Origin: an uncultured Opitutia bacterium
GTDB lineage: Bacteria; Verrucomicrobiota; Verrucomicrobiia; Opitutales; Puniceicoccaceae
Assembly (NCBI GenBank): GCA_913056175.1
Contig: CAJXLM010000004.1
Location: forward strand, 23,189 to 87,188
Reading direction: 5' to 3'
DNA: 64,000 bases
A program made the position numbers and the translations under genes. Shown in pieces: positions 18,681-60,937 of the stretch (its first letter is position 1; each line of letters opens with the position of its first letter). The notes under the pieces are model-generated. The model was not told the origin of the DNA. It saw only the letters and a list, made by a program, of their open reading frames with translations, and did not search any database.

Positions 18681-18692
18681 GAAACGGATCCC

Positions 18693-19066
18693 GAAGCGCG
18701 ATAAGCCGGATTCTGTTCCCCGCCGGAGCGGTTCGGCATTCATTCCTCTAGCCCGGCCCGGGCGGGCCAGGCTCCCCGGCCGATGCCGGGGTGCAGCGTA
18801 CCCGGGACCGCGGGCGGGTCACCCGGTCCCTGTTGGCCTTGCACCGGATTGGGTTTGTCGTGCCCCTTCGGTTGCCCTCCGGGCGGTGGGCTCTTACCCC
18901 ACCGTTTCACCCTTACCCCGCGGGGCGGGGCGGTCTGTTTTCTGCGACACTTTCCGTCAGCCAGCCGTCGCCCGCTGGCTGCCCCCCCTTTCGGGAGGAA
19001 TCCTACCCTGTGGTGTCCGGACTTTCCTCTCCCCCGGCGGACCGGGAGAGCGAATGCCTGCGCTTC
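18693..19066 (-). ncRNA. rnpB: RNase P RNA, bacterial type A
   Basis: The minus-strand read gives GAAGCGC...GGGGGAGAGGAAAGUCCGGACACCACAGGG...ACAGAAAACAGACCGCC...GGGUAAGGGUGAAACGGUGGGGUAAGAGCCCACC...GGUGCAAGGCCAA...ACAGAAUCCGGCUUAUCGCGCUUC. Both P4 strands are present, and the P1 ends (GAAGCGC/GCGCUUC) pair. Confidence 0.94.
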
Positions 19067-19292
19067 AAAGATCCACGAACAGCCTATCCGGGGATCCCCC
19101 TCCTGTCCACCGGGGAAGTGCGGGGCGGCGGGTGCCGGCCTCCCCTCTCCGGGAGGGGTGCCGGGCTTTCCAATTGACAGCGGGCGGGCGGAGGCCAAGA
19201 CACAAGGGCACGCGCCCACCATCCTCCCTTGCACTTTTGGCCGCGGGACGCGTCCGCCCGGCCCTCCCCTGTCCTCTTGTTGTCCATCTCCC

Positions 19293-20315
19293 GTGTTCGG
19301 ATTTCTCTCCAATGACATCGGTATCGACCTCGGCACGGCCAACAGTCTCGTCTTCGTCCGCGACAAGGGCATCGTCCTCCGCGAGCCCAGCGTAGTCGCG
19401 ATCTATTCCTCCTCCCGCAAGGTCTGCGCGGTCGGCGAGGAGGCCAAGCAGATGCTCGGGCGCACGCCCGGGACGATCACGGCCCTGCGCCCGATGAAGG
19501 ACGGGGTGATCGCGGACTTCGAGATCACCGAGGCGATGCTCAAGCACTTCATCCGGAAGGTGCACAAGGGCGTCCGCTTCGTCCCGCCCCGGGTGGTGGT
19601 GGCCGTCCCCTCGGGAATCACGGAGGTCGAGCGGCGGGCCGTCAAGGAGTCGGCCATCAACGCGGGCGCGCGGGACGTCGTTCTCATCGAGGAGCCCATG
19701 GCGGCGGCGATCGGGGTGGGCCTGCCCATCCAGGAGCCCACCGCGAACATGATCGTCGACATCGGCGGGGGCACCACGGAGGTGGCCCTCATCTCGCTGG
19801 CGGGGGTGGTCTACACCAAGAGCATCCGGGTGGGCGGGGACGAGTTGGACGCGTCCATCACCAACTACATGAAGCGGGCCTACAACCTGACGATCGGGGA
19901 AAGGACCGCGGAGGAGATCAAGATGAAGATCGGGTCGGCCGCTCCCCTGGAGAACGAGCTGACCATGGAGGTGAAGGGGCGGGACTCGGTGGCCGGCCTC
20001 CCCAAGACCATCCACATTGCCTCCCAGGAGATCCGCGAGGCGATCGCGGACACGCTCGAGGCGATCAACGACCTCGTCCGGAGCGCCCTCGAGCGCTGCC
20101 CCCCGGAGTTGTCGGCTGACCTTGTGGACCGGGGCTTCATCCTCGCCGGCGGGGGTGCCCTCATCCGGGGGCTCGACCGCATGCTCAGCGAGGGCACCGG
20201 GCTGCCCGTCCTCGTGGCCGACGACCCGCTCACCGCGGTGGCCATGGGGACCGGCAAGGTCCTCGAGGAGTTGGAGTGGCTGGTCAAGGAGATCGCCGTA
20301 CACCGCAAGGACTGA
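19293..20315 (+). CDS. mreB: rod shape-determining protein MreB
   Basis: From GTG 19293: (M)[36 protein letters not shown]..., 340 aa, actin-like ATPase motifs. The longer 510-aa ORF would run through rnpB and is rejected. Confidence 0.95.
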
Positions 20316-31718: not shown

Positions 31719-31796
31719 CGGAGCGGGCGCTGCCGGGGCGATCCGCCGGGTGGGAGAGGGGTTGCCGTGGGGGCGCCGGGCTGGCTTGCTTCGGGT

Positions 31797-33995
31797 ATGG
31801 GCGCGAGGTGCGGCATCCCGGTCAGGAAAGGCGTCCCCCGGAAGGCGTTCGTCCTCTGGTGGCTCGCCCTGGCTTGCGGGCTGGTTCCCTCCCCGGCTTC
31901 CGGCCAGGCGGCGGCGGAGGAGTTGCGGAGCGGTTGGTTCATTCGGCCGCCCTACATGATGGAGCGGCAGGAGGGGAACCTCACGGTGTTGACGGGGCTG
32001 GAGATCCAGTTCGCCCGCAAGCTCTTCGAGGGGACGGGCTACCGGGCGAAGTTCGAGCCGCTTTCCTGGGCGGAGTCCCTCCAGGGGCTCCGCCTGGGGA
32101 CCGTCGACTTCGTCACGGGTGCCTACGAGATTGAGAGCCGCAAGGAGTACGCGCACTACTCGATCCCCTACCGCCACGAGGAAATGGTCCTCTACTACCG
32201 GCGGGGGGACCCGGGTTTCGCGGAGGTCCGCACGCTCGCGGAGCTCTTTTCCCTCCTCCGGCAGCGCCCGCTCCGGATGGGATACACGGCCGGTTTCGCG
32301 GTCGGTGCGCAGGACGTGCAGCAATTCTTCGACGACCCACCCCCGACCCTCGAGCGGGTGCCCTCCTCCGGGTACCAGGACAACCTCCGGCTGATGGCCG
32401 ACGGGGCGATTGATTTCTTCATCGCCAATCCGGTGGTCATGGACCGGATGCTCCTCGCGGAGGATCTCCGCGGGGTCATTGCCAAGGGGAAGGTTTCCGT
32501 CGGCCGGATTCCGGTCCACGTCCTCTTCAGCAAGGTCACGGTGGAGCCGGAGGAGGTGGAGTTGTTCAATCGGCGGATCGGGCGCCTCCGCGAGACGGGC
32601 ACGATCCGCCGGCTCTACATCAACACCGTTCTCCCCTTCTACCTGACGGTGACCACGAGCCAGCTGTGGTTTGAGGGGATCACCGCCCTCGGGATCGTCG
32701 CCTTTTCCCTCTCCGGCGTCATCCTCGCCCGCCGGGAACGCTACAACGTGTTCGGGGCCCTCATCCTCGGGACCCTTCCGGCCATCGGGGGCGGGGTGCT
32801 CCGGGATCTCTTCCTCGGCAGCGGGCGGATCTTTGTCCTCGAGACGCCGTTCCACTTCCTCGCGGCCATCGCCGTGGTCCTTCTCTCCTTCCTGCTGCTG
32901 CGGGCGGTCGACTGGATCCGGGCCCGCCGGAAGCCGGGGCGGAGGGTCGCGGGCCTCCGCGGCTCGAGCAGGCTGGGACGCCTGTTCGGCGGACTCTACC
33001 ACTTTTTCGATGCGTGGGCGGTGGCCGCGTTCACGATCATCGGGGTGAGTGCCGCCGTGGAAACGGGGGCCACCCCGCTCTGGCTCTGGGGGCCCGCGAT
33101 GGGCGTGCTGACCGCCTCGGGCGGGGTCGTCCTCCGCGACATGGTGCGGGCGGAGTTCAATATCGAGATGCTCAAGAAGGATTCCTTTGCGGAGGTCTCC
33201 ATCGTCGGGGGTTCCCTCTACACGGCGGCCCTCCTCGCCTACCCGGAGCAGCTCAGCGGAGGCGCCCATCTCCCGGTGACCCTCGGTTTCATTTCGGCCC
33301 TCTTTCTCCTCCGCTTCCTGATTCTCCGGCGGGGGTGGACGAATCCCTTCCAGTTTGGCGATGCCGTCGAGGGACCGGAAGTGCGGCTCACCCTCCTCCG
33401 GGAGCGGGAAGCGGCCCTTTGGCGGTACCTCGTCGCCTTCCACGCCCATTCCCCGGAAGGGGAGTCGGTCGCCGACCTCGAGGAGCTGCACAACCGATTC
33501 TTCTACGAGTGGACGGGCTTGCGCAATGAGCTCGAGGGAATGGCCGAGCAGTCGCGGGAAATCGCCCGCATGCCCTCCTACCGACACGGCGTCCACCGGC
33601 TCCACCTCCTTGCCCACCTCGAGACGGTCCTCTACGAGATGGCCGGGGAGAGTCCCGACCCGGAAACCCGCGTTGGCCGGAGGGACCGGGAGCTGGCCGC
33701 CGAATTCCGCGCCTTGCTGGGGAAGGTCGGGGTGCAGGTGGCCCAGCCGGGAGGGGAGGGCCGCGCCGAGCTGCGGCGAAGACACGCCCACCTGATGGAG
33801 GCCTGCCGGCGGAACCGCGAGGAGCCACCCTCCGCCTCCCGCTCCGACCGACGCTGGATCTACCGGCTGGAGCGGATGACCTATTTGCTGGGCGAGTACC
33901 TGGAGACGGCCAGCGAGCCGGCGGATTCCGCAGGTTGCAAAACATCCGCTGAACGGCCAACGCAGGAATCGCTTGCGGTACTCCTTGGGAGATGA
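31797..33995 (+). CDS. fusion protein: signal peptide, family-3 solute-binding domain, 2x UPF0126/TRIC membrane repeats, cytoplasmic PhoU-like helical domain (paralog 1)
   Basis: SBP-like region WFIRPPYMM...GTVDFVTGAYEI...IDFFIANPVVMDRML. TRIC glycine motifs AIGGGVLRDLFLG and ASGGVVLRDMVRAEF. Helical tail with ...WIYRLERMTYLLGEYLE. ATG 31797 gives a good signal peptide; GTG 31767 is also possible. Confidence 0.8.
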   Translation: MGARCGIPVRKGVPRKAFVLWWLALACGLVPSPASGQAAAEELRSGWFIRPPYMMERQEGNLTVLTGLEIQFARKLFEGTGYRAKFEPLSWAESLQGLRLGTVDFVTGAYEIESRKEYAHYSIPYRHEEMVLYYRRGDPGFAEVRTLAELFSLLRQRPLRMGYTAGFAVGAQDVQQFFDDPPPTLERVPSSGYQDNLRLMADGAIDFFIANPVVMDRMLLAEDLRGVIAKGKVSVGRIPVHVLFSKVTVEPEEVELFNRRIGRLRETGTIRRLYINTVLPFYLTVTTSQLWFEGITALGIVAFSLSGVILARRERYNVFGALILGTLPAIGGGVLRDLFLGSGRIFVLETPFHFLAAIAVVLLSFLLLRAVDWIRARRKPGRRVAGLRGSSRLGRLFGGLYHFFDAWAVAAFTIIGVSAAVETGATPLWLWGPAMGVLTASGGVVLRDMVRAEFNIEMLKKDSFAEVSIVGGSLYTAALLAYPEQLSGGAHLPVTLGFISALFLLRFLILRRGWTNPFQFGDAVEGPEVRLTLLREREAALWRYLVAFHAHSPEGESVADLEELHNRFFYEWTGLRNELEGMAEQSREIARMPSYRHGVHRLHLLAHLETVLYEMAGESPDPETRVGRRDRELAAEFRALLGKVGVQVAQPGGEGRAELRRRHAHLMEACRRNREEPPSASRSDRRWIYRLERMTYLLGEYLETASEPADSAGCKTSAERPTQESLAVLLGR

Positions 33996-34071: not shown

Positions 34072-36255
34072 ATGTTCGGCGCGGGCGGCCAGATAACTTC
34101 GGGAAGGCAGCGTCGATCGGGTGTGGTGTGGTTGATTTGCCTAATCACCGTTGGATCCCCTCTTGTACCGAAACCTGCAACGGGTCAGGCGGCGGCAGAG
34201 GAACTTACAACAGGCTGGTTCATTCGACCGCCCTACATGATGGAAGTGCAGCGTGGGGAACAGTTGGTGCTAACAGGACTCGCGATTCTCTTGAGCAAGG
34301 AAATGATGAAGGGAACGGAGTTCCGTCCGGAATTCCTCCCCTTGTCTTGGGCGGAATCGTTGCAGGGCCTTCGGGACGGTACTGTCGACTTCGTGATGGG
34401 GGCTTACGAAATCGATGCACGGAAGGAGTTCGCCTATTATTCGATTCCCTACCGAGAGGAGGAGATGGCCCTCTATCACCGGGTGGGGGACAAGGAACTG
34501 CAAAACGTCCGGGATCTTGCCCAGTTTTTCTCCCTACTTCGCGAACGTCCTTTCCGAATGGGTTACACGGATGGTTTTGCGGTGGGAGGTCAGAAGGTGC
34601 AGGCTTTTTTCGACAATCCTCCCCCGACTCTCGAACGAGTGCCCTCTTCGGGATACTCGGATAACCTCCGGTTGCTTCTCAACGGGACGATCGACTTCTT
34701 CATCGCGAACCCGGTCGTCATGGACCGCATGCTATTGGCGGAGGGGATGAGGGGGAAGATTGTAAAGGGAAAGGTCACCATCGCCGAAATCCCGGTCCAC
34801 ATTCTGTTCAGCAAGTCGTCGATCGAACCTTCGGAAGTTTCTATTTTCAACGACAGGCTTCGAGTGATGCTGGAAGACGGAACCTTTCGAAGACTGTTCA
34901 TTAACACGATCCTTCCGTTTTATCTAGCAGCAACCACTAGCCAGCCATGGTTCGAGTGGCTAACGGTCCTTGGGGTAATGGCGTTTGCCCTCTCTGGAGT
35001 GATTCTGGCCCGGAAGGAAAGCTACAACGTCTCCGGTGCCTTGGTCCTCGTAACCCTGTCAGCGATCGGCGGGGGAGTGCTGCGGGATCTCTTTCTTGGA
35101 ACCAGCCAGATCTTTATCCTCGACACACCGTTGTTTTTCCTCGCGGCCGTGTCCGTGGTTATCGTTTCCTTCGTCGGGTTGCGGATCTACGATTATCTCC
35201 GCAACCGGGGATCAGGGATTCAAGCGCGAGGCGATCCCCCTCTTTCCGGTCGGCTCAGTCGGTTTTTTGAAGGATTGTACCACTTTTTCGATGCGTGGGG
35301 TGTTGCTGCGTTAACTATCATCGGAGTCAGTGCAGCGGTTGAGATAGGGGCTACACCGCTCTGGCTGTGGGGTCCGGTCATGGGTGGGCTGACTGCTTCG
35401 GGAGGTGTAGTGCTGCGGGATATGGTGCGGGCCGAGTTCAATATTGAAATGCTTAAAAAGGATCTTTATGCCGAAATTTCGGTGGCAGGCGGGGCTATTT
35501 ATACCTTAGTGCTCCTTCTTTTTCCCGAGCAATTCAGTAGTGGTGCCTACTTGCCGGTGACTATTGGATTTATCTTTGCTCTCTTCTTTCTGCGCTTTGC
35601 GGTGCTTCGCAGGGGCTGGAAAAACCCCCTTCAGTTCGGGGATGTCATGAACCGGCCGGAACGGCGACTCCGGACACTCCGGCAACGGGAGGCGGCTCTC
35701 TGGCGATACCTCAGTGCCTTTTATGGGGAAGCCCCCTATGAGCACACGGAGCGGGAGTTGGAAGAATTGCACAACCAATTTTTCTACGACCTAACAGAGT
35801 TGCGGAAGGATCTCAACGGCCTTGCGGAGGAATGTCTCGATGCGACCCGATCACCGGCGTATCGGCGGGCCCTGATCCGACTGAATTTACTCTCGCTCCT
35901 TGAAGCCGGTCTGTACGAATTCTCTCGCGATCCCGGGGAGGCAGAAACGGTCGAAGGGCAAGAAGAGAAAAAATTGGCGGGCAGCTTTCGTGCCCTGCTT
36001 GGGCAGATGGGACAGCAGGTGGCGGAGCCGAGCGAGGACCAGCGTGAGGAGTTGCGCACCCACCACGCCGCCATTATGGCGGAGTGCCAACGCAGGCGGG
36101 ATCCACCGCCCCAACAGTCGTCGAACCGATGGCGCTGGATCTACCGAATGGAGAGAATGGGCTACTTGCTCGGGGAGTATCTGCAGGCTACAGGAGAGTG
36201 GGAACGGGCTCCGGTGAGCCTCCGGGTCGACCGTCGGGCGCTTCCGCAACAGTAA
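34072..36255 (+). CDS. fusion protein of the same architecture (paralog 2), low-GC copy
   Basis: Collinear with paralog 1 over the full length (70/99 identities in a hand-counted stretch). Same motifs: AIGGGVLRDLFLG, ASGGVVLRDMVRAEFNIEMLKKD, WIYRMERMGYLLGEYLQ. Its nucleotide composition is clearly AT-richer than the surroundings. Confidence 0.8.
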   Translation: MFGAGGQITSGRQRRSGVVWLICLITVGSPLVPKPATGQAAAEELTTGWFIRPPYMMEVQRGEQLVLTGLAILLSKEMMKGTEFRPEFLPLSWAESLQGLRDGTVDFVMGAYEIDARKEFAYYSIPYREEEMALYHRVGDKELQNVRDLAQFFSLLRERPFRMGYTDGFAVGGQKVQAFFDNPPPTLERVPSSGYSDNLRLLLNGTIDFFIANPVVMDRMLLAEGMRGKIVKGKVTIAEIPVHILFSKSSIEPSEVSIFNDRLRVMLEDGTFRRLFINTILPFYLAATTSQPWFEWLTVLGVMAFALSGVILARKESYNVSGALVLVTLSAIGGGVLRDLFLGTSQIFILDTPLFFLAAVSVVIVSFVGLRIYDYLRNRGSGIQARGDPPLSGRLSRFFEGLYHFFDAWGVAALTIIGVSAAVEIGATPLWLWGPVMGGLTASGGVVLRDMVRAEFNIEMLKKDLYAEISVAGGAIYTLVLLLFPEQFSSGAYLPVTIGFIFALFFLRFAVLRRGWKNPLQFGDVMNRPERRLRTLRQREAALWRYLSAFYGEAPYEHTERELEELHNQFFYDLTELRKDLNGLAEECLDATRSPAYRRALIRLNLLSLLEAGLYEFSRDPGEAETVEGQEEKKLAGSFRALLGQMGQQVAEPSEDQREELRTHHAAIMAECQRRRDPPPQQSSNRWRWIYRMERMGYLLGEYLQATGEWERAPVSLRVDRRALPQQ

Positions 36256-55031: not shown

Positions 55032-58000
55032 CTATTCCGGCGGGGTGAAGTTCTCGATGTTGCGCTTCACCTCGGTGAGGAAGGAGGCGGAGCCTGCGCC
55101 GTTGATCCAGCGATGGTCGAAGGTGAGGACGAGGCGGACGACTTCCCGGGGTTCGCGGCCTTCCTTGTCGGGGTCGGGTTCGTAGTGGGCGGAACCGACG
55201 AAGAGGGTCGCGATGGAGGGGGGGACGACGATGGGGGTGGCGGACTGGACGTCGTACCGACCCATCGTGGAAAGGGAGACGGGTACCCGGGTCTTCGGTT
55301 GGAAGCGCCCGTTGCGGGTATCGCTGACCGCCTTGCGGAAGGCCTCGTTGAACTCGTACCAGTCCTTGCGGTTGGCGTCGGGCAGAATGGCGGTGGCGAG
55401 CCGGTCGCCGGAGAGGGAGACGGCGATGCCGAGGTCGAAGTCGCCGATCGCCCGGGGCTGCTTGCCCATGAGAAGGGTGTGGGTGAACCCGCGGTGCTTC
55501 TTCATGGCCTGCACGAGGCACCAGGAGAGGATCGCCGACGGGCTGGGGGACTTCATGGTGCCGGCCGCGCGGATGGTGTCGCGGGCCTGGCGGAGCTGGG
55601 CCCACTTCGCCTTCACCATGATGGTCGCGGGGACGAGTCCCTGCATCTGCTGGATGACTTCCGCGGAGAGGCCGGAGGTGTTGGCGATCTCGCCGTTGTC
55701 GGACTCGTACTGGCGGAAGCTGGCGAGGGCCGGGCCGGCAGGGTGGCCGGTCTCGGCGGCATCCGCGCTCGCCTCGGCGGCGGCCGTGTCGAAGGAGCAT
55801 TCGGCGAGGACTTCGCCCACGGCGACTTCGTCCCCGCTCTCGAACTTCCACCCCTCGAGCCGCCCGCTCTCCGGGGCCTCGATGGGGAAGACGGCCTTGT
55901 CGGTCTCCACCTCGCAGAGGGCCTCGTCCGGCTCGAAGCGGTCGCCGGGTTGCTTGAGCAGCTGGAGGAGCCGGGCCCGGGTGATGCCCTCGCCGAGGAC
56001 GGGCACGGTGATGGTCCCCCGGCTGGGGGCCGCGCTGGCGGGCTCGGCCGGACGGAGTATCGGGCCGGACGCGGTGGCTGAGGGGAAGGGTTCGCTGGCC
56101 ATGCCCACCGGGCGGACCGCCTGGATCTGTTGGCGCAGGGCGGTGAGGATCTCCTCGGTGGAGGGGAGGGCGGTGTACTCGTAGGTGGGATGATACCCGA
56201 TGGGGGCGTTGGCCCGGGAAAGGGTCCGGGGGGGAGCCTGCAGGCGCTGCCAGATGTCGGGGGTGCCGATCGTGCGGGCCACGATTTCCTCGCCGATCGA
56301 GCCCGGGGCGGTGTCTTCCTGGACGACGAGGAGCCGGCCGGTCTTGCGGACGGAGTCGAGCACGGTGGTCTCGTCCCACGGCACCACGGTGCGCAGGTCG
56401 ATCAATTCCACGGGACGGTCGTCGCCGAGTTGTTCGATCGCTTCCTCCACGAGCTCGACGCAGTTCCCCCAGGTAACGACGGTGAGCATGTATCCGGTGC
56501 GGCGCACCCGGGCCCGGCCGAGGGGAACGGGGGGCAGTTCGGGGGGGATTTTCCGCTCCTCCCAGAGGAGGTGCTTGGGCAGGAGGAGGAGGACGGGATC
56601 CGTGGCCTGCTGGGCGCTCCAGAGGAGGCCGGCGGCATCCTCGGGGTTGCTGGGGACGGCCACGGTGAGGCCGGGGAGATTGGCGAAGAGGCCGTCGCTG
56701 GAGGAGCTGTGCCAGATGGCGCCGCCCGGAAGGTACGCTCCGTAGGGGGCGTAGATGACCGCGGGACAGGACCAGTCCCCGAAGCTCCGCCAGCGGAGGT
56801 TGGCGAGGTTGTTGGCCAGCTGGTTCCAGCCGGGTCCGATGAAGTCGATGAACTGGATCTCGAAGAAGGGTTTCTTCCCGTAGGAGGCGAGGCCGCAGGC
56901 GAGGCCGAGAATGGTGGATTCGGCGACGGGGGCGTTCATGGCCCGCTCGGGGTCGAGGGTGGACAGCTCGGCGGTCAGGCGGAAGACCCCGCCCTTCGGG
57001 TCGGCGATGTCCTGCCCGTAGAAGAGGCTGTCGCGGTTGCGGCCGAGGACCTCGCGAAAGCTGAGATTGACCGCGTCGAGGAGGCGGGCCTTCTCCCCGA
57101 GCTGCACGGGGGGCGGCTCCGCGACGGGGGGGGCCGGGTCGGTCCGGTGGAGGGTGACCTCGGAGGCTTCCGGGTCATCCTCGCGGCGGGCGTCCGCGTA
57201 GACCTGGCGCACCCTTTCCCGGGTTTCCTGTTCCCGCGCGGCGTAGGCTTCCTCGTCGAGGAGCCCCTCCGCGAGGAGGCGATCCTTCCAGAGGAGGAGG
57301 GGATCCTTGGCCTCCGTCTGGGCGAGGGCTTCCGGGGTGCGGTAGAGACGGTGGTCGTCGGCGCTGGAGTGGCTGGTGGCGCGCTCCACATCGAACCAGA
57401 GAAAGGCGGGGCCCTCACCGGAGCGGGCGTGGGCGATGGCCCGCTCTCCCGCGGCGTGGACTTCTTCCACGGAACTGCCGTCGGCACGCACCCACCGGCT
57501 CTCGTCGAGGAAGCCGAGGGCAAGGGCGTTCGAGTCCCGGTTCAGGGTGCTGATGGCGATCCCGTTGTCCTCCACGACGAAGACCACCGGGAGTTTCTTC
57601 TCGAGCGCGACGAGGGCGGCCTCGAAGAAATCGCCCTGGCGGGAGGAGGCCTCGCCGGTGCTCGCAACCACCACCTGGGGCCGGCTATCGAGCTGGAGGC
57701 CCCAGGCGATCCCGCAGGCGGGAAGGAGGTGCGAGCCGATCGGGGACGGGTGCGACCAGATCCCGAGGCGGCGGGAGCTGAAGTGGCCGGGGAGCTGGCG
57801 GCCCCCGCTGGAGGAGGAGCGCTTCGCGAAGAAGGAGAGGGCCACCTCCCGGGTGCTCAGGCCCCGGGCGAGAACGAGGGCGCGGTCGCGGTAGTAGGGC
57901 GCGAGATAATCCCCCTCCTCGAGGTGGAGGGCGAGGGCGGCCATCGCCTCATGCCCGATCCCCCCGACGTGGAACCAGCCGTGGCCCTGGCGGAGCAGGT

Positions 58001-58106
58001 TTTGCTCGCGGAGGTCGCCCATGCGACTCTCCAGCATCCAGTCGAGAAGTTGCAGGCGGGTGTTCGCATCGAGACCGCCGGGAGCGGTTGTTGCCGGGGT
58101 TGCCAT
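55032..58106 (-). CDS. single-chain 2-oxoacid dehydrogenase: E1-alpha, E1-beta, lipoyl domain and E2 acyltransferase core fused
   Basis: aa ~20-320: E1-alpha with ThDP motif TGEASSRQGDF...VVEDNGIAIS. aa ~340-665: E1-beta (transketolase Pyr plus C-terminal domains: QDIADPKGGVFR, FEIQFIDF, LIDLRTVVPWD). aa ~697-772: lipoyl domain with CEVETDKAVFPIEAP. aa ~812-1024: E2 core ending TFDHRWINGAGSASFL. Confidence 0.85.
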   Translation of the reverse strand: MATPATTAPGGLDANTRLQLLDWMLESRMGDLREQNLLRQGHGWFHVGGIGHEAMAALALHLEEGDYLAPYYRDRALVLARGLSTREVALSFFAKRSSSSGGRQLPGHFSSRRLGIWSHPSPIGSHLLPACGIAWGLQLDSRPQVVVASTGEASSRQGDFFEAALVALEKKLPVVFVVEDNGIAISTLNRDSNALALGFLDESRWVRADGSSVEEVHAAGERAIAHARSGEGPAFLWFDVERATSHSSADDHRLYRTPEALAQTEAKDPLLLWKDRLLAEGLLDEEAYAAREQETRERVRQVYADARREDDPEASEVTLHRTDPAPPVAEPPPVQLGEKARLLDAVNLSFREVLGRNRDSLFYGQDIADPKGGVFRLTAELSTLDPERAMNAPVAESTILGLACGLASYGKKPFFEIQFIDFIGPGWNQLANNLANLRWRSFGDWSCPAVIYAPYGAYLPGGAIWHSSSSDGLFANLPGLTVAVPSNPEDAAGLLWSAQQATDPVLLLLPKHLLWEERKIPPELPPVPLGRARVRRTGYMLTVVTWGNCVELVEEAIEQLGDDRPVELIDLRTVVPWDETTVLDSVRKTGRLLVVQEDTAPGSIGEEIVARTIGTPDIWQRLQAPPRTLSRANAPIGYHPTYEYTALPSTEEILTALRQQIQAVRPVGMASEPFPSATASGPILRPAEPASAAPSRGTITVPVLGEGITRARLLQLLKQPGDRFEPDEALCEVETDKAVFPIEAPESGRLEGWKFESGDEVAVGEVLAECSFDTAAAEASADAAETGHPAGPALASFRQYESDNGEIANTSGLSAEVIQQMQGLVPATIMVKAKWAQLRQARDTIRAAGTMKSPSPSAILSWCLVQAMKKHRGFTHTLLMGKQPRAIGDFDLGIAVSLSGDRLATAILPDANRKDWYEFNEAFRKAVSDTRNGRFQPKTRVPVSLSTMGRYDVQSATPIVVPPSIATLFVGSAHYEPDPDKEGREPREVVRLVLTFDHRWINGAGSASFLTEVKRNIENFTPPE

Positions 58107-58187: not shown

Positions 58188-59663
58188 TCAGGAATCCTCG
58201 GTCGGCGCTCGAAAGCGGGAGGCGATGCGCGCGCGGGATTCCTCGTCGGCCACCGGCTCGAACCAGCCGATGGCGCGCTGGAAGCGGAGGAGGTCCTGGA
58301 GAAAGCGGTAGAGCTCGATGGAGGCGGTCTGCCGCTGGACGAGGGCGTTGTTCTGGGCATCGAGCAGGTCGACAATGCTGACGGTGCCCTGCTCGTACTT
58401 GTCCTGTACGATGGTGAGATTGGCCTCGGCTCGTTCCGCCGCGATCCGGGAAAGTTCGATGGACCGGCGCGAGCTCTGCAGGGCGGCAAGGGAATCGCTG
58501 ACTTCGATGGCCTTCTCCTGGCGCAGGCGGGCCTCCTCCCAGGAGATCCGGCGAAGGCCGGCGAGTGCCCCGCGCACCTCGCCCACCCGGCTGAGTCCCT
58601 CGAAGAGGGGAAGGCTGGCGGTGAGGCGGACGGTCCAGCTCTCCTTGTCCCGCTCCCGCCCGATGGTGGTGTAGTCGGCGTCGAGGTTGTACCCGTAGTC
58701 GGCGCTGGCAGTGAGGTCGGGCACGAAGAAGCTCCGCCTCCGCTCGTTGAGGAGGATCCTTTGGCCCTCCGCGGAGGAGCGCAGCGAGGCCAGCTCCGGG
58801 GAGCGGGCCAGCGAAGTGTCAATGCTGGCCCGGCGCAGGGAACGCCAGGACGGTTCGCCCGCCGTGTCCTCTCCCTTCGGGGGGAGGAGGGTGCCGAGAC
58901 TGGTCCGGAAGACCTCGCTCCCCAGGTCGAGGTCGGTGAGCTCCCATTCGGTGTCCGGGGCGAGCCCGAGGGCCCGGTTCAGCCGGTTGGCGGCGGAGTG
59001 GAGGAGGGAGCGCACCCGGAAGAGTTCACTCTCCTGCTGGGCCTCCTCGGACTCGAAACGGAGAACCTCTTCCGGGCCGACGGTGCCCACCTCGTTGCGA
59101 ATCCGGGCGATCTCGAGGTTTTCCTGGGTAATGCGGAGGTTGTCCTCGGCGATCCGCAGGCTGGAGCGGACGGACAAGTACTCGACGTAGGCGAGCCCGG
59201 CGGATGCGAGGACGTCCAACCGGACGGCGTCGTCGGAGGCCCGGGCGGCGGCCTGTTCTTCCCGGCTGGAGCGGAAGGAGGCGAGCTGGCGGTCGTTGAA
59301 GAGGATCTGGCTGGCACGGAGGGCGAGATCCGCGGATTCCTTGGGTGCGGAGCCCGCCTGGACGGCCGGGGCTTCCTCGCGGTTGCGGAGATAGGTGACA
59401 TCGGCCTCCACCTGGGGCAGGAGAGCCCCGCGGGTCTCGGTCACCCGGGCCTCCGCCGCGCGGACGACCTCGCGGCTGATCCGCCGGTCGAAATTGTTTT
59501 CCAGCGCGATCTCCATCGCCCGGGTGAGGTCGAGGGAGCCCGGGGAGGATTCCTCCCCGATCCCGGTGGGCCCGGGAGCCGCCCGGGCGGTCAGCGCGAG
59601 GAGCAGCAGGCCGAGGCCGAGAAGGTTCCGGGTCGACGGAAGGGAGGAGGCGAGAGCCAGCAT
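58188..59663 (-). CDS. TolC-family outer-membrane efflux protein
   Basis: ATG 59663 gives the signal peptide MLALASSLPSTRNLLGLGLLLLALTARA. Two OEP repeats with typical ...L.LE.A...AL.NN.D.....E.V.AAEA.V...RGALLPQV.... An upstream TTG at 59702 is also in frame. Confidence 0.85.
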   Translation of the reverse strand: MLALASSLPSTRNLLGLGLLLLALTARAAPGPTGIGEESSPGSLDLTRAMEIALENNFDRRISREVVRAAEARVTETRGALLPQVEADVTYLRNREEAPAVQAGSAPKESADLALRASQILFNDRQLASFRSSREEQAAARASDDAVRLDVLASAGLAYVEYLSVRSSLRIAEDNLRITQENLEIARIRNEVGTVGPEEVLRFESEEAQQESELFRVRSLLHSAANRLNRALGLAPDTEWELTDLDLGSEVFRTSLGTLLPPKGEDTAGEPSWRSLRRASIDTSLARSPELASLRSSAEGQRILLNERRRSFFVPDLTASADYGYNLDADYTTIGRERDKESWTVRLTASLPLFEGLSRVGEVRGALAGLRRISWEEARLRQEKAIEVSDSLAALQSSRRSIELSRIAAERAEANLTIVQDKYEQGTVSIVDLLDAQNNALVQRQTASIELYRFLQDLLRFQRAIGWFEPVADEESRARIASRFRAPTEDS

Positions 59664-59698
59664 AGGATGCGTAGAGACTAGGACCGGGCGGGAACGGG

Positions 59699-60937
59699 TC
59701 AAGGGGCGGCGGCGAACGCTTCCTCCTCGGTGGCGATGGCCTCGTCGAGGAGGGGTTCAATGGATTGGCGAAAGCGAAAGAATCCGGCGCGGGCGTGCGG
59801 CCAGAGGAGGCGGTCCCACTGGCGACAGAAGGGAACGACCCGATAGCCGGCCTCCCGGAGCGCCTCCCGGATGCCCGCGACTCCGGGAGCGGTCGGCCCG
59901 ACGGGTGCATAGGGCAGCCAGATTTCCTCGAGACGAGCGCGTTGGGCCCAGGCGACCGCGTCCTCCGGCCGGGCTGGCCCGAGGTGGTCCGTGGCGGGCC
60001 CGGAGGCCGGGAGGGCGTCCGCCAGTGCCTGCCGCCGGTACTCGCGCACCGCGGCCACCTCCGGGACCCGGCTCCCTTCTTCCCGTTCCTCAGGGCGGGC
60101 ACCGGCGACCGCGGTCCAGGGCGCCTCGGCAGCCCCGTGGGCGAGGAGCCGACCGAGGCCGAGGTCGTCCGTGGTCAGGAGGAGGCCCCGCCGCGGATTT
60201 CCGGCGAGGGGCGGTGGTGCGGGCGGGAGGGGGAGGTCCGTGCGGGCGGGCCGCTCCACGCCGGAGGGGGTCGGCGCGTCCTCCACGAGTTGATCGGCGG
60301 GATGGAATCTCCCGCGGGTGTAGCGCCGGATGTTCTCGGCGCGGGCGAGGTAGTGCTTGCCGGGCGTTTGCAGCCCGGCCACCCAGCGCCAGCCGAGGGT
60401 GTTCGACGCGGCGTCCCCGTCGTAGAGCTCCCGCAGGAAGAGGTCCGCCCCGAGGGTCCACGGCAACCGGAGGGTGAAGATCCAGATGCTCGCGAACCAC
60501 ATGCGGGCGTGGTTGTGCAGGTAGTGGTGCCGCCGCAGCTCCGCGACCCAGGCGTCGAAGCAACCGATCCCGGTCTCCCCGTCGAGGGCCCGGCGGTAGG
60601 AGTCATGGTCCTCCCAGTCCCGCGCGTCGCGGTCCCGCGCGTCGAGGTAGTCGGCCCAGACTTGCGGGCGCATCTCCAGCCACCCTTTCCAGTAGGTCCG
60701 CCAGACTACCTCCTGCACGAATTTCTCGACGCGGGCATGGGGAAACCGCGCGAGGACGGCGGCGCAAACCTCCGCCTCACTGAGGAGGCGGTGGCGGAGG
60801 TAGGGCGAGAGGAGGGAGACGTTCGACCGGTCCTCCGGGCCGCGGTCCTCGTTGCGGGTGCGGGCGTAGGCGGCCGCGTGGGGCAGGAATTCCTGCAGGC
60901 GGGCGAGGCCGGCGGATCGTTGGGGAGGGAGGTCCAT
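59699..60937 (-). CDS. photolyase/cryptochrome-related FAD-binding-domain protein (domain order atypical)
   Basis: The N-terminal half carries photolyase C-terminal-domain motifs (SLLSPYLRHRLLS, ETGIGCFDAWVAELRRHHYLHNHARMWFASIW, LYDGDAASNTLGWRWVAG). The C-terminal ~160 aa resembles the alpha/beta N-terminal photolyase domain. Confidence 0.75.
   Translation of the reverse strand: MDLPPQRSAGLARLQEFLPHAAAYARTRNEDRGPEDRSNVSLLSPYLRHRLLSEAEVCAAVLARFPHARVEKFVQEVVWRTYWKGWLEMRPQVWADYLDARDRDARDWEDHDSYRRALDGETGIGCFDAWVAELRRHHYLHNHARMWFASIWIFTLRLPWTLGADLFLRELYDGDAASNTLGWRWVAGLQTPGKHYLARAENIRRYTRGRFHPADQLVEDAPTPSGVERPARTDLPLPPAPPPLAGNPRRGLLLTTDDLGLGRLLAHGAAEAPWTAVAGARPEEREEGSRVPEVAAVREYRRQALADALPASGPATDHLGPARPEDAVAWAQRARLEEIWLPYAPVGPTAPGVAGIREALREAGYRVVPFCRQWDRLLWPHARAGFFRFRQSIEPLLDEAIATEEEAFAAAP

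Follow-up and report, generated by a model that had tools for sequence, protein, structure and literature searches.

A single-chain E1alpha-E1beta-lipoyl-E2 fusion without a peripheral-subunit-binding domain in Verrucomicrobiota, probably a branched-chain 2-oxoacid dehydrogenase

2-Oxoacid dehydrogenase complexes are the textbook case of non-covalent assembly round an E2 core, in which E1 and E3 compete for the peripheral-subunit-binding domain (PSBD). In complexes with a heterotetrameric E1, such as the branched-chain 2-oxoacid dehydrogenase (BCKDH) and the Gram-positive and mitochondrial pyruvate dehydrogenases (PDH), the components are three separate chains, and the PSBD of E2 docks either E1 or E3. 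Fused E1alpha-E1beta proteins, which we take to be those of KEGG K11381 ('bkdA'), end after the Transketolase_C domain and need a separate E2. This supposedly universal architecture is already breached in Actinobacteria, with their trimeric E2p and hexameric OdhA, the latter being a 0.8-MDa hexamer of two E2o trimers and three E1o dimers (PMC10415282). In quinocarcin biosynthesis, QncL is a single chain with the domains of E1beta followed by a lipoyl and an acyltransferase domain (PMC6335953). The present analysis concerns a 64,000-nucleotide (nt) stretch of an uncultured Opitutia bacterium (contig CAJXLM010000004.1, positions 23,189 to 87,188; below, the window), in which a single gene at 55032..58106 on the minus strand encodes E1alpha, E1beta, lipoyl and E2 modules as one protein of 1024 amino acids (aa), to which all residue numbers below refer.

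According to the evidence presented here, this protein is, with moderate confidence, a genuine and functional single-chain 2-oxoacid dehydrogenase of the order E1alpha-E1beta-lipoyl-E2, most likely of the branched-chain type and served by an E3 in trans. That its chemistry is the classical one of 2-oxoacid dehydrogenases is almost certain. All four modules are present with intact catalytic motifs, from which activity is predicted.

Modules and active sites of the fusion protein

The gene is one unbroken open reading frame (ORF) with an ATG start and a product of about 111 kDa, and its GC content at codon positions 1, 2 and 3 (0.70, 0.49 and 0.91, respectively) fits a coding frame in a window of ~70% GC. 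Domain borders were taken from Pfam, with the threshold for E3_binding, the PSBD family, relaxed to E<=1. The scan reports five domains in the order E1_dh, Transket_pyr, Transketolase_C, Biotin_lipoyl and 2-oxoacid_dh. An earlier sequence-only reading of the window had proposed four modules on one uninterrupted ORF, which these five domains bear out: every module is recovered, and E3_binding is absent even at E<=1. A 1183-aa ORF that overlaps the gene on the plus strand was dismissed, its translation being low-complexity junk. The parts of the gene are listed below, together with their support, including the predicted local distance difference test (pLDDT) of the structural model.

55032..58106, minus strand: whole gene (one ORF, five Pfam domains, full-length homologues at 46-93% identity)
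57168..58037, minus strand: E1alpha module, residues 24-313 (Pfam E1_dh, E=7e-46)
57081..57167, minus strand: Pro-rich alpha-beta junction, residues 314-342 (linker statistics; block mean pLDDT 61-66, lower than in the domains on either side)
56151..57080, minus strand: E1beta module, residues 343-652 (Transket_pyr and Transketolase_C)
56016..56129, minus strand: linker 1, Pro/Ala/Ser-rich, from E1beta to the lipoyl domain, residues 660-697 (pLDDT <50 at 666-695)
55800..56015, minus strand: lipoyl domain, residues 698-769 (Pfam Biotin_lipoyl, E=8e-15)
55674..55793, minus strand: linker 2, at the usual PSBD position, residues 772-811 (no E3_binding match; pLDDT below 50)
55035..55673, minus strand: E2 acyltransferase core, residues 812-1024 (Pfam 2-oxoacid_dh at 818-1020, E=1e-25)

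Within the E1beta module, Transket_pyr covers residues 343-514 (E=2e-19) and Transketolase_C residues 530-652 (E=3e-21). NCBIfam agrees with Pfam on the parts, and every equivalog score is far under its cut-off, so the window protein falls into no curated subfamily.

Conservation was assessed in two alignments, A1 with 41 Opitutia sequences and A2 with 38 sequences from both orders that carry the fusion (78 distinct sequences in total). Residues Y72-R73 of E1alpha, G151, D180-N181, H246 and E396 are invariant in both, and position 152 of the thiamine diphosphate (ThDP)/Mg motif is E or D only. The ThDP motif named by the sequence-only reading is indeed found as G151-E152...D180-N181-G182. His246 lies within the SHSSADD loop of E1alpha, which reads (S)HSS(A)DD across the family, and Glu396, in AESTI, is the ThDP-activating Glu of E1beta. 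In the lipoyl domain, Lys737 stands in ETDKAV, of which E734, T735, K737 and A738 are invariant in both orders and D736 in A1 only. The E2 motif D997-H998-R999-x-x-N1002-G1003 is likewise invariant in both alignments, and the positions quoted earlier for the lipoyl-lysine (K737, nt 55896-55898) and for the active-site histidine (H998 within DHRWINGAG) are correct.

The catalytic E2 residues Ser946 (SLSTMG), His998 and Asn1002 (DHRWING) are conserved and align with Ser558, His610 and Asn614 of Azotobacter vinelandii E2p (1eaa), Ser946 and Asn1002 being placed with the help of its S558A and N614D mutant entries. No PDB entry matches the C-terminal half of the core better than wild-type 1eaa, which reads ISSLG...DHRVING. 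The asparagine in place of the usual aspartate of DHRxxDG, to which attention had been drawn, is thus really there but is not unusual: since the wild-type A. vinelandii enzyme has Asn614, Asn1002 represents a known natural state and no lesion.

The AlphaFold model of the whole chain has a mean pLDDT of 74 and is of low confidence in the linkers (666-695 and 776-825), and a focused model of residues 696-1024 has a pLDDT of 79. According to Foldseek, the E1beta part superposes on solved E1beta chains with TM-scores of 0.82-0.87, the combined E1alpha-E1beta part on single-chain transketolase with 0.66-0.67, and the E2 part on solved E2 cores with 0.74-0.76 over about 205-210 residues. The transketolase superposition indicates that the fused E1 halves of the model are arranged like a ThDP enzyme protomer. 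By sequence, the best PDB matches of E1beta are 1ik6 and 1um9_B. The E2 core, earlier called short, is complete, given the fit to solved cores and the coverage of positions 21-227 of the 232 in the Pfam profile.

The junction between E1alpha and E1beta has an almost constant length across the family (27-29 residues between P312 and R341, both invariant). Linker 1 varies in sequence and spans 48-57 residues (anchors P648 to I699), and linker 2, also variable in sequence, spans 32-68 residues (anchors V763 to L813; 49 in the window protein). The lipoyl domain is therefore tied at both ends by flexible linkers of about 50 residues. The suggestion that no PSBD lies between the lipoyl domain and the core holds for the window protein and for all 78 sequences, E3_binding at E<=1 being reported for 0/41 rows of A1 and 0/38 rows of A2. 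This segment is modelled as disordered. Just before the core it contains a conserved stretch (...SGLSAEVIQQMQGLVPAT...), probably the positional counterpart of the N-terminal arm in canonical cores.

Distribution of the fusion and its wider family

One genome per GTDB species was scanned, and relatives were found in at least 596 species-representative genomes of Verrucomicrobiota; the details that follow refer to the best 80 loci. All of these 80 are full-length fusions that match the query from about residue 1-30 through 1020-1024, except for L084, whose gene leaves the contig end at residue 976, and in the other 79 a single ORF of 1008-1071 aa holds the complete gene. The 80 loci fall into two lineage groups: one with Opitutales, Puniceicoccaceae, Coraliomargaritaceae, Lentimonas and Thalassobacterium, and another, at 45-49% identity, with Chthoniobacterales/Spartobacteria including Ca. 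Udaeobacter, a very abundant soil genus. In a collection of 5.8 billion proteins, the 120 best homologues all have 997-1072 aa and the same five Pfam domains; isolates among them include Puniceicoccus vermicola (68% identity) and several Coraliomargarita (about 50%). In Opitutales/Puniceicoccales and Chthoniobacterales, the complete fusion is how the enzyme normally occurs. The search for homologous architectures that had been proposed therefore confirms the fusion, and the earlier description of it as uncommon is right for biology at large but not within this lineage, where it is the rule.

The presence of the same fusion in at least 596 species genomes also removes the objection that a frameshift or an assembly error might have created it. 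One could suspect that separate E1alpha, E1beta and E2 genes had been joined by a missed stop, a frameshift or a chimeric assembly, because long spurious ORFs arise in high-GC genomes and because at one locus (L089, from a long-read assembly of 5x coverage) the gene is split into three ORFs. However, the strong coding bias of the fusion ORF, the complete ORFs in 79 of the 80 best loci, which are independent and come from many projects, the architecture common to the 120 best database homologues and the fixed length of the alpha-beta junction effectively refute an artefactual origin, leaving it next to no probability. The three consecutive ORFs at L089:8001-11210 encode E1alpha-beta (673 aa), lipoyl (212 aa) and E2 (165 aa) parts; the split is probably due to indel errors, and it illustrates that the fusion may be wrongly annotated as several genes. 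One verrucomicrobial-type fusion (51% identity) is found on contig CAXQRK010000098.1 (L017), binned as part of a Polaribacter (Bacteroidota) metagenome-assembled genome and probably mis-binned.

In current annotation, NCBI names the homologues only 'thiamine pyrophosphate-dependent enzyme', while its name at JGI is 2-oxoisovalerate dehydrogenase E1 component for the protein, presumably through the KEGG assignment for the fused alpha-beta E1. Such names hide the E2 function, and pathway reconstructions may score the verrucomicrobial complex as incomplete.

To collect the wider family, HMMER was run exhaustively on 1.84 billion cluster representatives, and the 150 closest were sorted by domain content. 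The fusion belongs to a superfamily built on fused E1alpha-beta: 75 of the 150 consist of E1alpha-beta only, about 40 are E1alpha-beta-lipoyl-KASIII (FabH-like) proteins, including P0144, P0152 and P0161, about 13 have the E1alpha-beta-lipoyl-E2 order, and a few are loading modules of polyketide synthases (PKS) or non-ribosomal peptide synthetases (NRPS) of the type E1-lipoyl-E2-ACP-KS.... In a crude neighbour-joining (NJ) tree, the verrucomicrobial fusions form one clade, whose neighbours include E1alpha-beta-only proteins, of which at least P0133 is PKS-associated, and the E2-ACP form.

Several of these relatives deserve a separate mention. The acyl carrier protein (ACP) domain follows E2 in P0127 (E1alpha-beta-lipoyl-E2-ACP) and in P0249 (...E1beta-lipoyl-E2-ACP-KS-MT-ACP-C-A), P0186 has the order E1alpha-beta-lipoyl-KASIII-KR-ACP, and at L090:6953-11604 an E1alpha-beta gene is followed by a lipoyl-E2-ACP-KS gene. 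P0127 also contains a PSBD-like stretch (PPVTRVYCGKKGLRPDQV...), which is not called by Pfam. A locus of the KASIII type is L008:10001-13429. In P0152, the lipoyl-Lys and the Cys/His/Asn motifs of KASIII are kept, and its gene stands alone in an apparently cyanobacterial context. The KASIII fusions would imply fatty-acid or polyketide priming straight from the acyl-lipoyl arm, bypassing CoA, and a full-text literature search for these relatives found nothing.

Gene neighbourhood, E3 and substrate

In the window, the fusion gene is preceded on the same strand by an outer-membrane efflux (OEP) gene, itself preceded by a gene for a photolyase-related protein, and faces a convergent peptide deformylase gene on its other side.

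58188-59702, minus strand: OEP gene, ending 81 nt upstream of the fusion gene
59699-60937, minus strand: photolyase-related FAD_binding_7 protein, with a 4-nt overlap with the OEP gene

Co-transcription of these two genes with the fusion gene is possible. Scans of the locus found no promoter-like site and no Rfam riboswitch, and the one terminator-like site is within chance expectation. The OEP synteny recurs in Puniceicoccus; Coraliomargarita algicola has an operon for thiamine biosynthesis 4 kb upstream of the gene, and in one further lineage the gene is divergent from sdhCAB. In all of these genomes, as in the window, the fusion gene stands by itself among housekeeping genes. Upstream of it, about 40 Chthoniobacterales loci have threonine synthase and aspartokinase genes; these are housekeeping genes and the only widely conserved neighbours there.

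As the sequence-only reading had stated, the window contains no lpd gene: Pfam on about 40 ORFs and tblastn with E. coli Lpd reveal no Pyr_redox-type E3, no Lpd match and no lipoate gene in these 64 kb. The same tblastn query finds no conserved E3 gene within 10 kb of the fusion gene at 89 loci. In 3 of the 89, all from Chthoniobacterales, an E3-like pyridine-nucleotide-disulfide oxidoreductase lies 6-9 kb away.

L052:1536-2936, L057:857-2260 and L076:2696-4114: E3-like flavoproteins (tblastn, 31% identity to E. coli Lpd)

These carry GGDCLNFGCVPSK and HAYPTFAE motifs (CLNFGC...HAYPTF), may be either true Lpd or mercuric-reductase-like, and are not used as evidence. A dedicated lpdV-type E3 in the operon, a trait of branched-chain complexes, is accordingly absent from the window and, apart from the three E3-like genes, from the 89 loci.

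E3 is known to need no docking domain for the oxidation of a free lipoyl protein, H-protein being one example, and the E2o of mammals has no PSBD; an E3 working in trans is therefore the default view. A gene for the glycine-cleavage P-protein (gcvP) lies near the fusion gene in Puniceicoccus, and since glycine cleavage requires L-protein, which is E3, an lpd gene is expected elsewhere in that genome. A cryptic E3-binding site or an adaptor protein would be an alternative route; in the mammalian 2-oxoglutarate dehydrogenase (OGDH) complex, E3 is reportedly held by an adaptor, MRPS36/KGD4. No small conserved protein that could be such a partner was found among the clustered neighbours of 80 loci. 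One might also suppose that the enzyme is independent of E3, its arm being reoxidised otherwise or its reaction being non-oxidative or partial, so that the loss of the PSBD would mean the loss of coupling to E3. This would agree with the lack of a PSBD in every member scanned and of a conserved E3 gene nearby, the three E3-like genes being perhaps of the mercuric-reductase type. It is, however, highly improbable, since several complexes often share one E3 whose gene is unlinked, mammalian E2o still uses E3 (reportedly through its adaptor), and both the glycine-cleavage precedent and the gcvP gene of Puniceicoccus argue for an E3 acting from elsewhere in the genome.

As for the substrate, the evidence favours branched-chain 2-oxoacids, and thus a BCKDH rather than a PDH role, on the basis of the leucine-catabolic neighbours of the Chthoniobacterales orthologues, the sole functional linkage found. 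Clustering over 80 loci places an enoyl-CoA hydratase within 10 kb downstream in 22 Chthoniobacterales loci, an HMG-CoA-lyase-like gene in 13 and a 540-aa carboxyltransferase in 14, with all three together in 7. The top PDB matches of the carboxyltransferase are mostly methylcrotonyl-CoA carboxylase beta subunits (398-453 bits); the entries labelled propionyl-CoA carboxylase beta include one of 452 bits, but most have about 250 or less. These neighbours process isovaleryl-CoA, the product of BCKDH from the leucine keto acid, which points to both a BCKDH activity and CoA as the acceptor. Several observations weigh against this assignment. The linkage is restricted to Chthoniobacterales, where orientations are mixed and the genes are not operonic, and neither the window nor the inspected Opitutia loci (L001-L004) showed leucine genes. 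The best NCBIfam matches, although far under the cut-offs, are PDH E1 alpha and beta and the E. coli-type E2p, PDB similarity is divided between PDH and BCKDH E1s, and PKS loading modules are among the nearest relatives outside Verrucomicrobiota.

Because the linkage is absent in the window clade and similarity does not discriminate, the same single-chain machine working as a pyruvate dehydrogenase that makes acetyl-CoA is a serious rival, if a rather unlikely one. The NCBIfam matches just mentioned (TIGR03181 for E1alpha, PRK11892 for E1beta and the aceF-type PRK11854 for E2p) speak for it, as do the A. vinelandii and E. coli E2p as closest solved relatives of the core, the sdhCAB neighbourhood in one lineage and the near-universal, apparently single-copy occurrence that a central enzyme would have. 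On the other hand, the NCBIfam scores are all far below the family cut-offs, in either half of E1, alpha or beta, the Thermus thermophilus BCKDH chains score higher than PDH chains of bacteria and human, and the leucine-catabolic neighbours and the JGI label point to the branched-chain enzyme. A different acceptor is conceivable too: a loader of the QncN/QncL type would pass an acyl or glycolyl group not to CoA but to the phosphopantetheine of an ACP or to the primer site of a fatty-acid synthase. The relatives at 31-44% identity that are fused to or precede ACP/KS domains (P0127, P0249 and L090), their position near the verrucomicrobial clade in the crude NJ tree, the large sister family in which FabH-like KASIII replaces E2, and QncL itself, an E1beta-lipoyl-E2 fusion that works with an ACP (PMC6335953), are in line with such a loader. 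It is nevertheless very unlikely, as the window protein has no ACP (PP-binding) domain, no ACP, PKS or NRPS gene lies nearby in the window or in verrucomicrobial loci with examined gene content, both orders keep the gene as a solitary housekeeping gene, and its Chthoniobacterales neighbours metabolise acyl-CoA. The branched-chain dehydrogenase with CoA as acceptor and E3 in trans is therefore preferred.

The remainder of the window holds ordinary chromosomal genes (dnaN, recA, mnmE/G, mreBC, PBP2, G6PD, PFK and malQ), with two further features. Tandem paralogues at 34072-36255 and 31767-33995, both on the plus strand, encode 727 and 742 aa, respectively; the first copy, the one scanned with Pfam, has a solute-binding and a Gly_transporter membrane domain, and the block of the second has a GC content of about 0.55 in comparison with about 0.69 in its neighbours, which suggests recent acquisition or an unusual constraint. 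A class A RNase P RNA (18686-19069, minus strand, 199.6 bits) overlaps several ORFs, including the mreB ORF at 18783-20315, whose long N-terminal extension is consequently spurious.

Proposed assembly and comparison with known systems

By analogy with the family, two chains would pair through their E1 halves into an (alpha-beta)2 ThDP enzyme, and three would associate through their E2 cores into an acyltransferase trimer. E1 would decarboxylate the 2-oxoacid and then reductively acylate Lys737 on the doubly tethered lipoyl domain, the E2 core (Ser946/His998/Asn1002) would transfer the acyl group to CoA, and an unlinked E3 would reoxidise the dihydrolipoyl group in trans, with no PSBD as a dock, as L-protein does on H-protein. 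With dimerising and trimerising modules in one chain, the smallest closed assembly is expected to be a hexamer, of about 0.67 MDa for a 111-kDa chain. A 24-mer cube whose 12 two-fold edges carry E1 dimers (about 2.7 MDa) and a 60-mer dodecahedron with 30 E1 dimers (about 6.7 MDa) are geometrically possible as well. The fusion does raise the question of how E1 could be present 1:1 with a 24- or 60-mer core, as remarked earlier, but given the hexameric precedent of OdhA such cores are not the sole option. In canonical E2 cores, the C-terminal segment forms the knob between trimers; the fusion keeps this segment, 1-2 residues shorter than the canonical ...LLL ends, and closes in ...IENFTPPE or ...IERFDLV, with Phe1020 invariant in A1 and at least 90% conserved in A2. 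Tentatively, and with somewhat less than even confidence, it is proposed that the sole branched-chain (or pyruvate) dehydrogenase of the two orders consists of E2 trimers cross-linked by E1, in a hexamer or a strutted cage, and uses E3 without a dock.

The fusion is a second, independent exception to the common architecture, with E1 wired 1:1 to E2, the PSBD gone and the swinging arm tied at both ends. If E3 is indeed dock-free, stable docking through the PSBD, deemed a defining trait of complexes with an alpha-beta E1, is dispensable in nature. The enzyme offers a natural test of the share of E3 docking in flux, of active-site coupling with a doubly tethered lipoyl domain, and of the assemblies to which a chain with both a dimer-forming and a trimer-forming module gives rise. 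As a compact one-gene module that, together with a generic E3, would convert a 2-oxoacid to acyl-CoA, it could also serve engineering.

In comparison with heterotetrameric-E1 complexes, the fusion has the same five modules, the same catalytic residues and presumably the same chemistry, but it is one chain, has no PSBD and tethers its lipoyl domain at both ends. It resembles mammalian E2o in working, as proposed, with E3 despite the missing PSBD; the mammalian complex, however, has a separate E1o and reportedly a dedicated adaptor, for which the clustered neighbours of the fusion gene offer no candidate. With the fused E1alpha-beta proteins it shares the alpha-beta fusion, whereas these stop short of the lipoyl domain and E2.

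OdhA/KGD is similar in having E1 and E2 on one polypeptide, dimerising and trimerising modules and no PSBD (PMC10415282). Its order is, however, E2o and then E1o, with a homodimeric E1o and no lipoyl domain of its own, so that it borrows those of E2p (PMC10415282), while the fusion has the order E1alpha-E1beta-lipoyl-E2, an E1 of the alpha-beta type and its own lipoyl domain. The similarity to OdhA in sequence is weak (E about 1e-4 for the E2 part; 32.8 bits for NF008907, whose cut-off is 878). The Qnc system, to which SclQ1-4 is likened, has a separate E1alpha (QncN), an ACP (QncM) as acceptor, a ketose phosphate as donor and a place in a biosynthetic cluster (PMC6335953); the verrucomicrobial protein, by contrast, includes E1alpha in the fusion, lacks an ACP and occurs among housekeeping genes. 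With QncL, secondary metabolism already has a PSBD-less link between E1 and lipoyl-E2. A full-text literature search on E1-E2 fusions, fused E1 (K11381), PSBD-less complexes and verrucomicrobial PDH returned no description of the complete fusion; it brought up OdhA and an endosymbiont genome paper with no more than a mention of a PDH. Partial fusions are thus known in QncL and OdhA, and the new part, as far as these searches reach, is a complete E1alpha-E1beta-lipoyl-E2 chain as a lineage-wide housekeeping enzyme.

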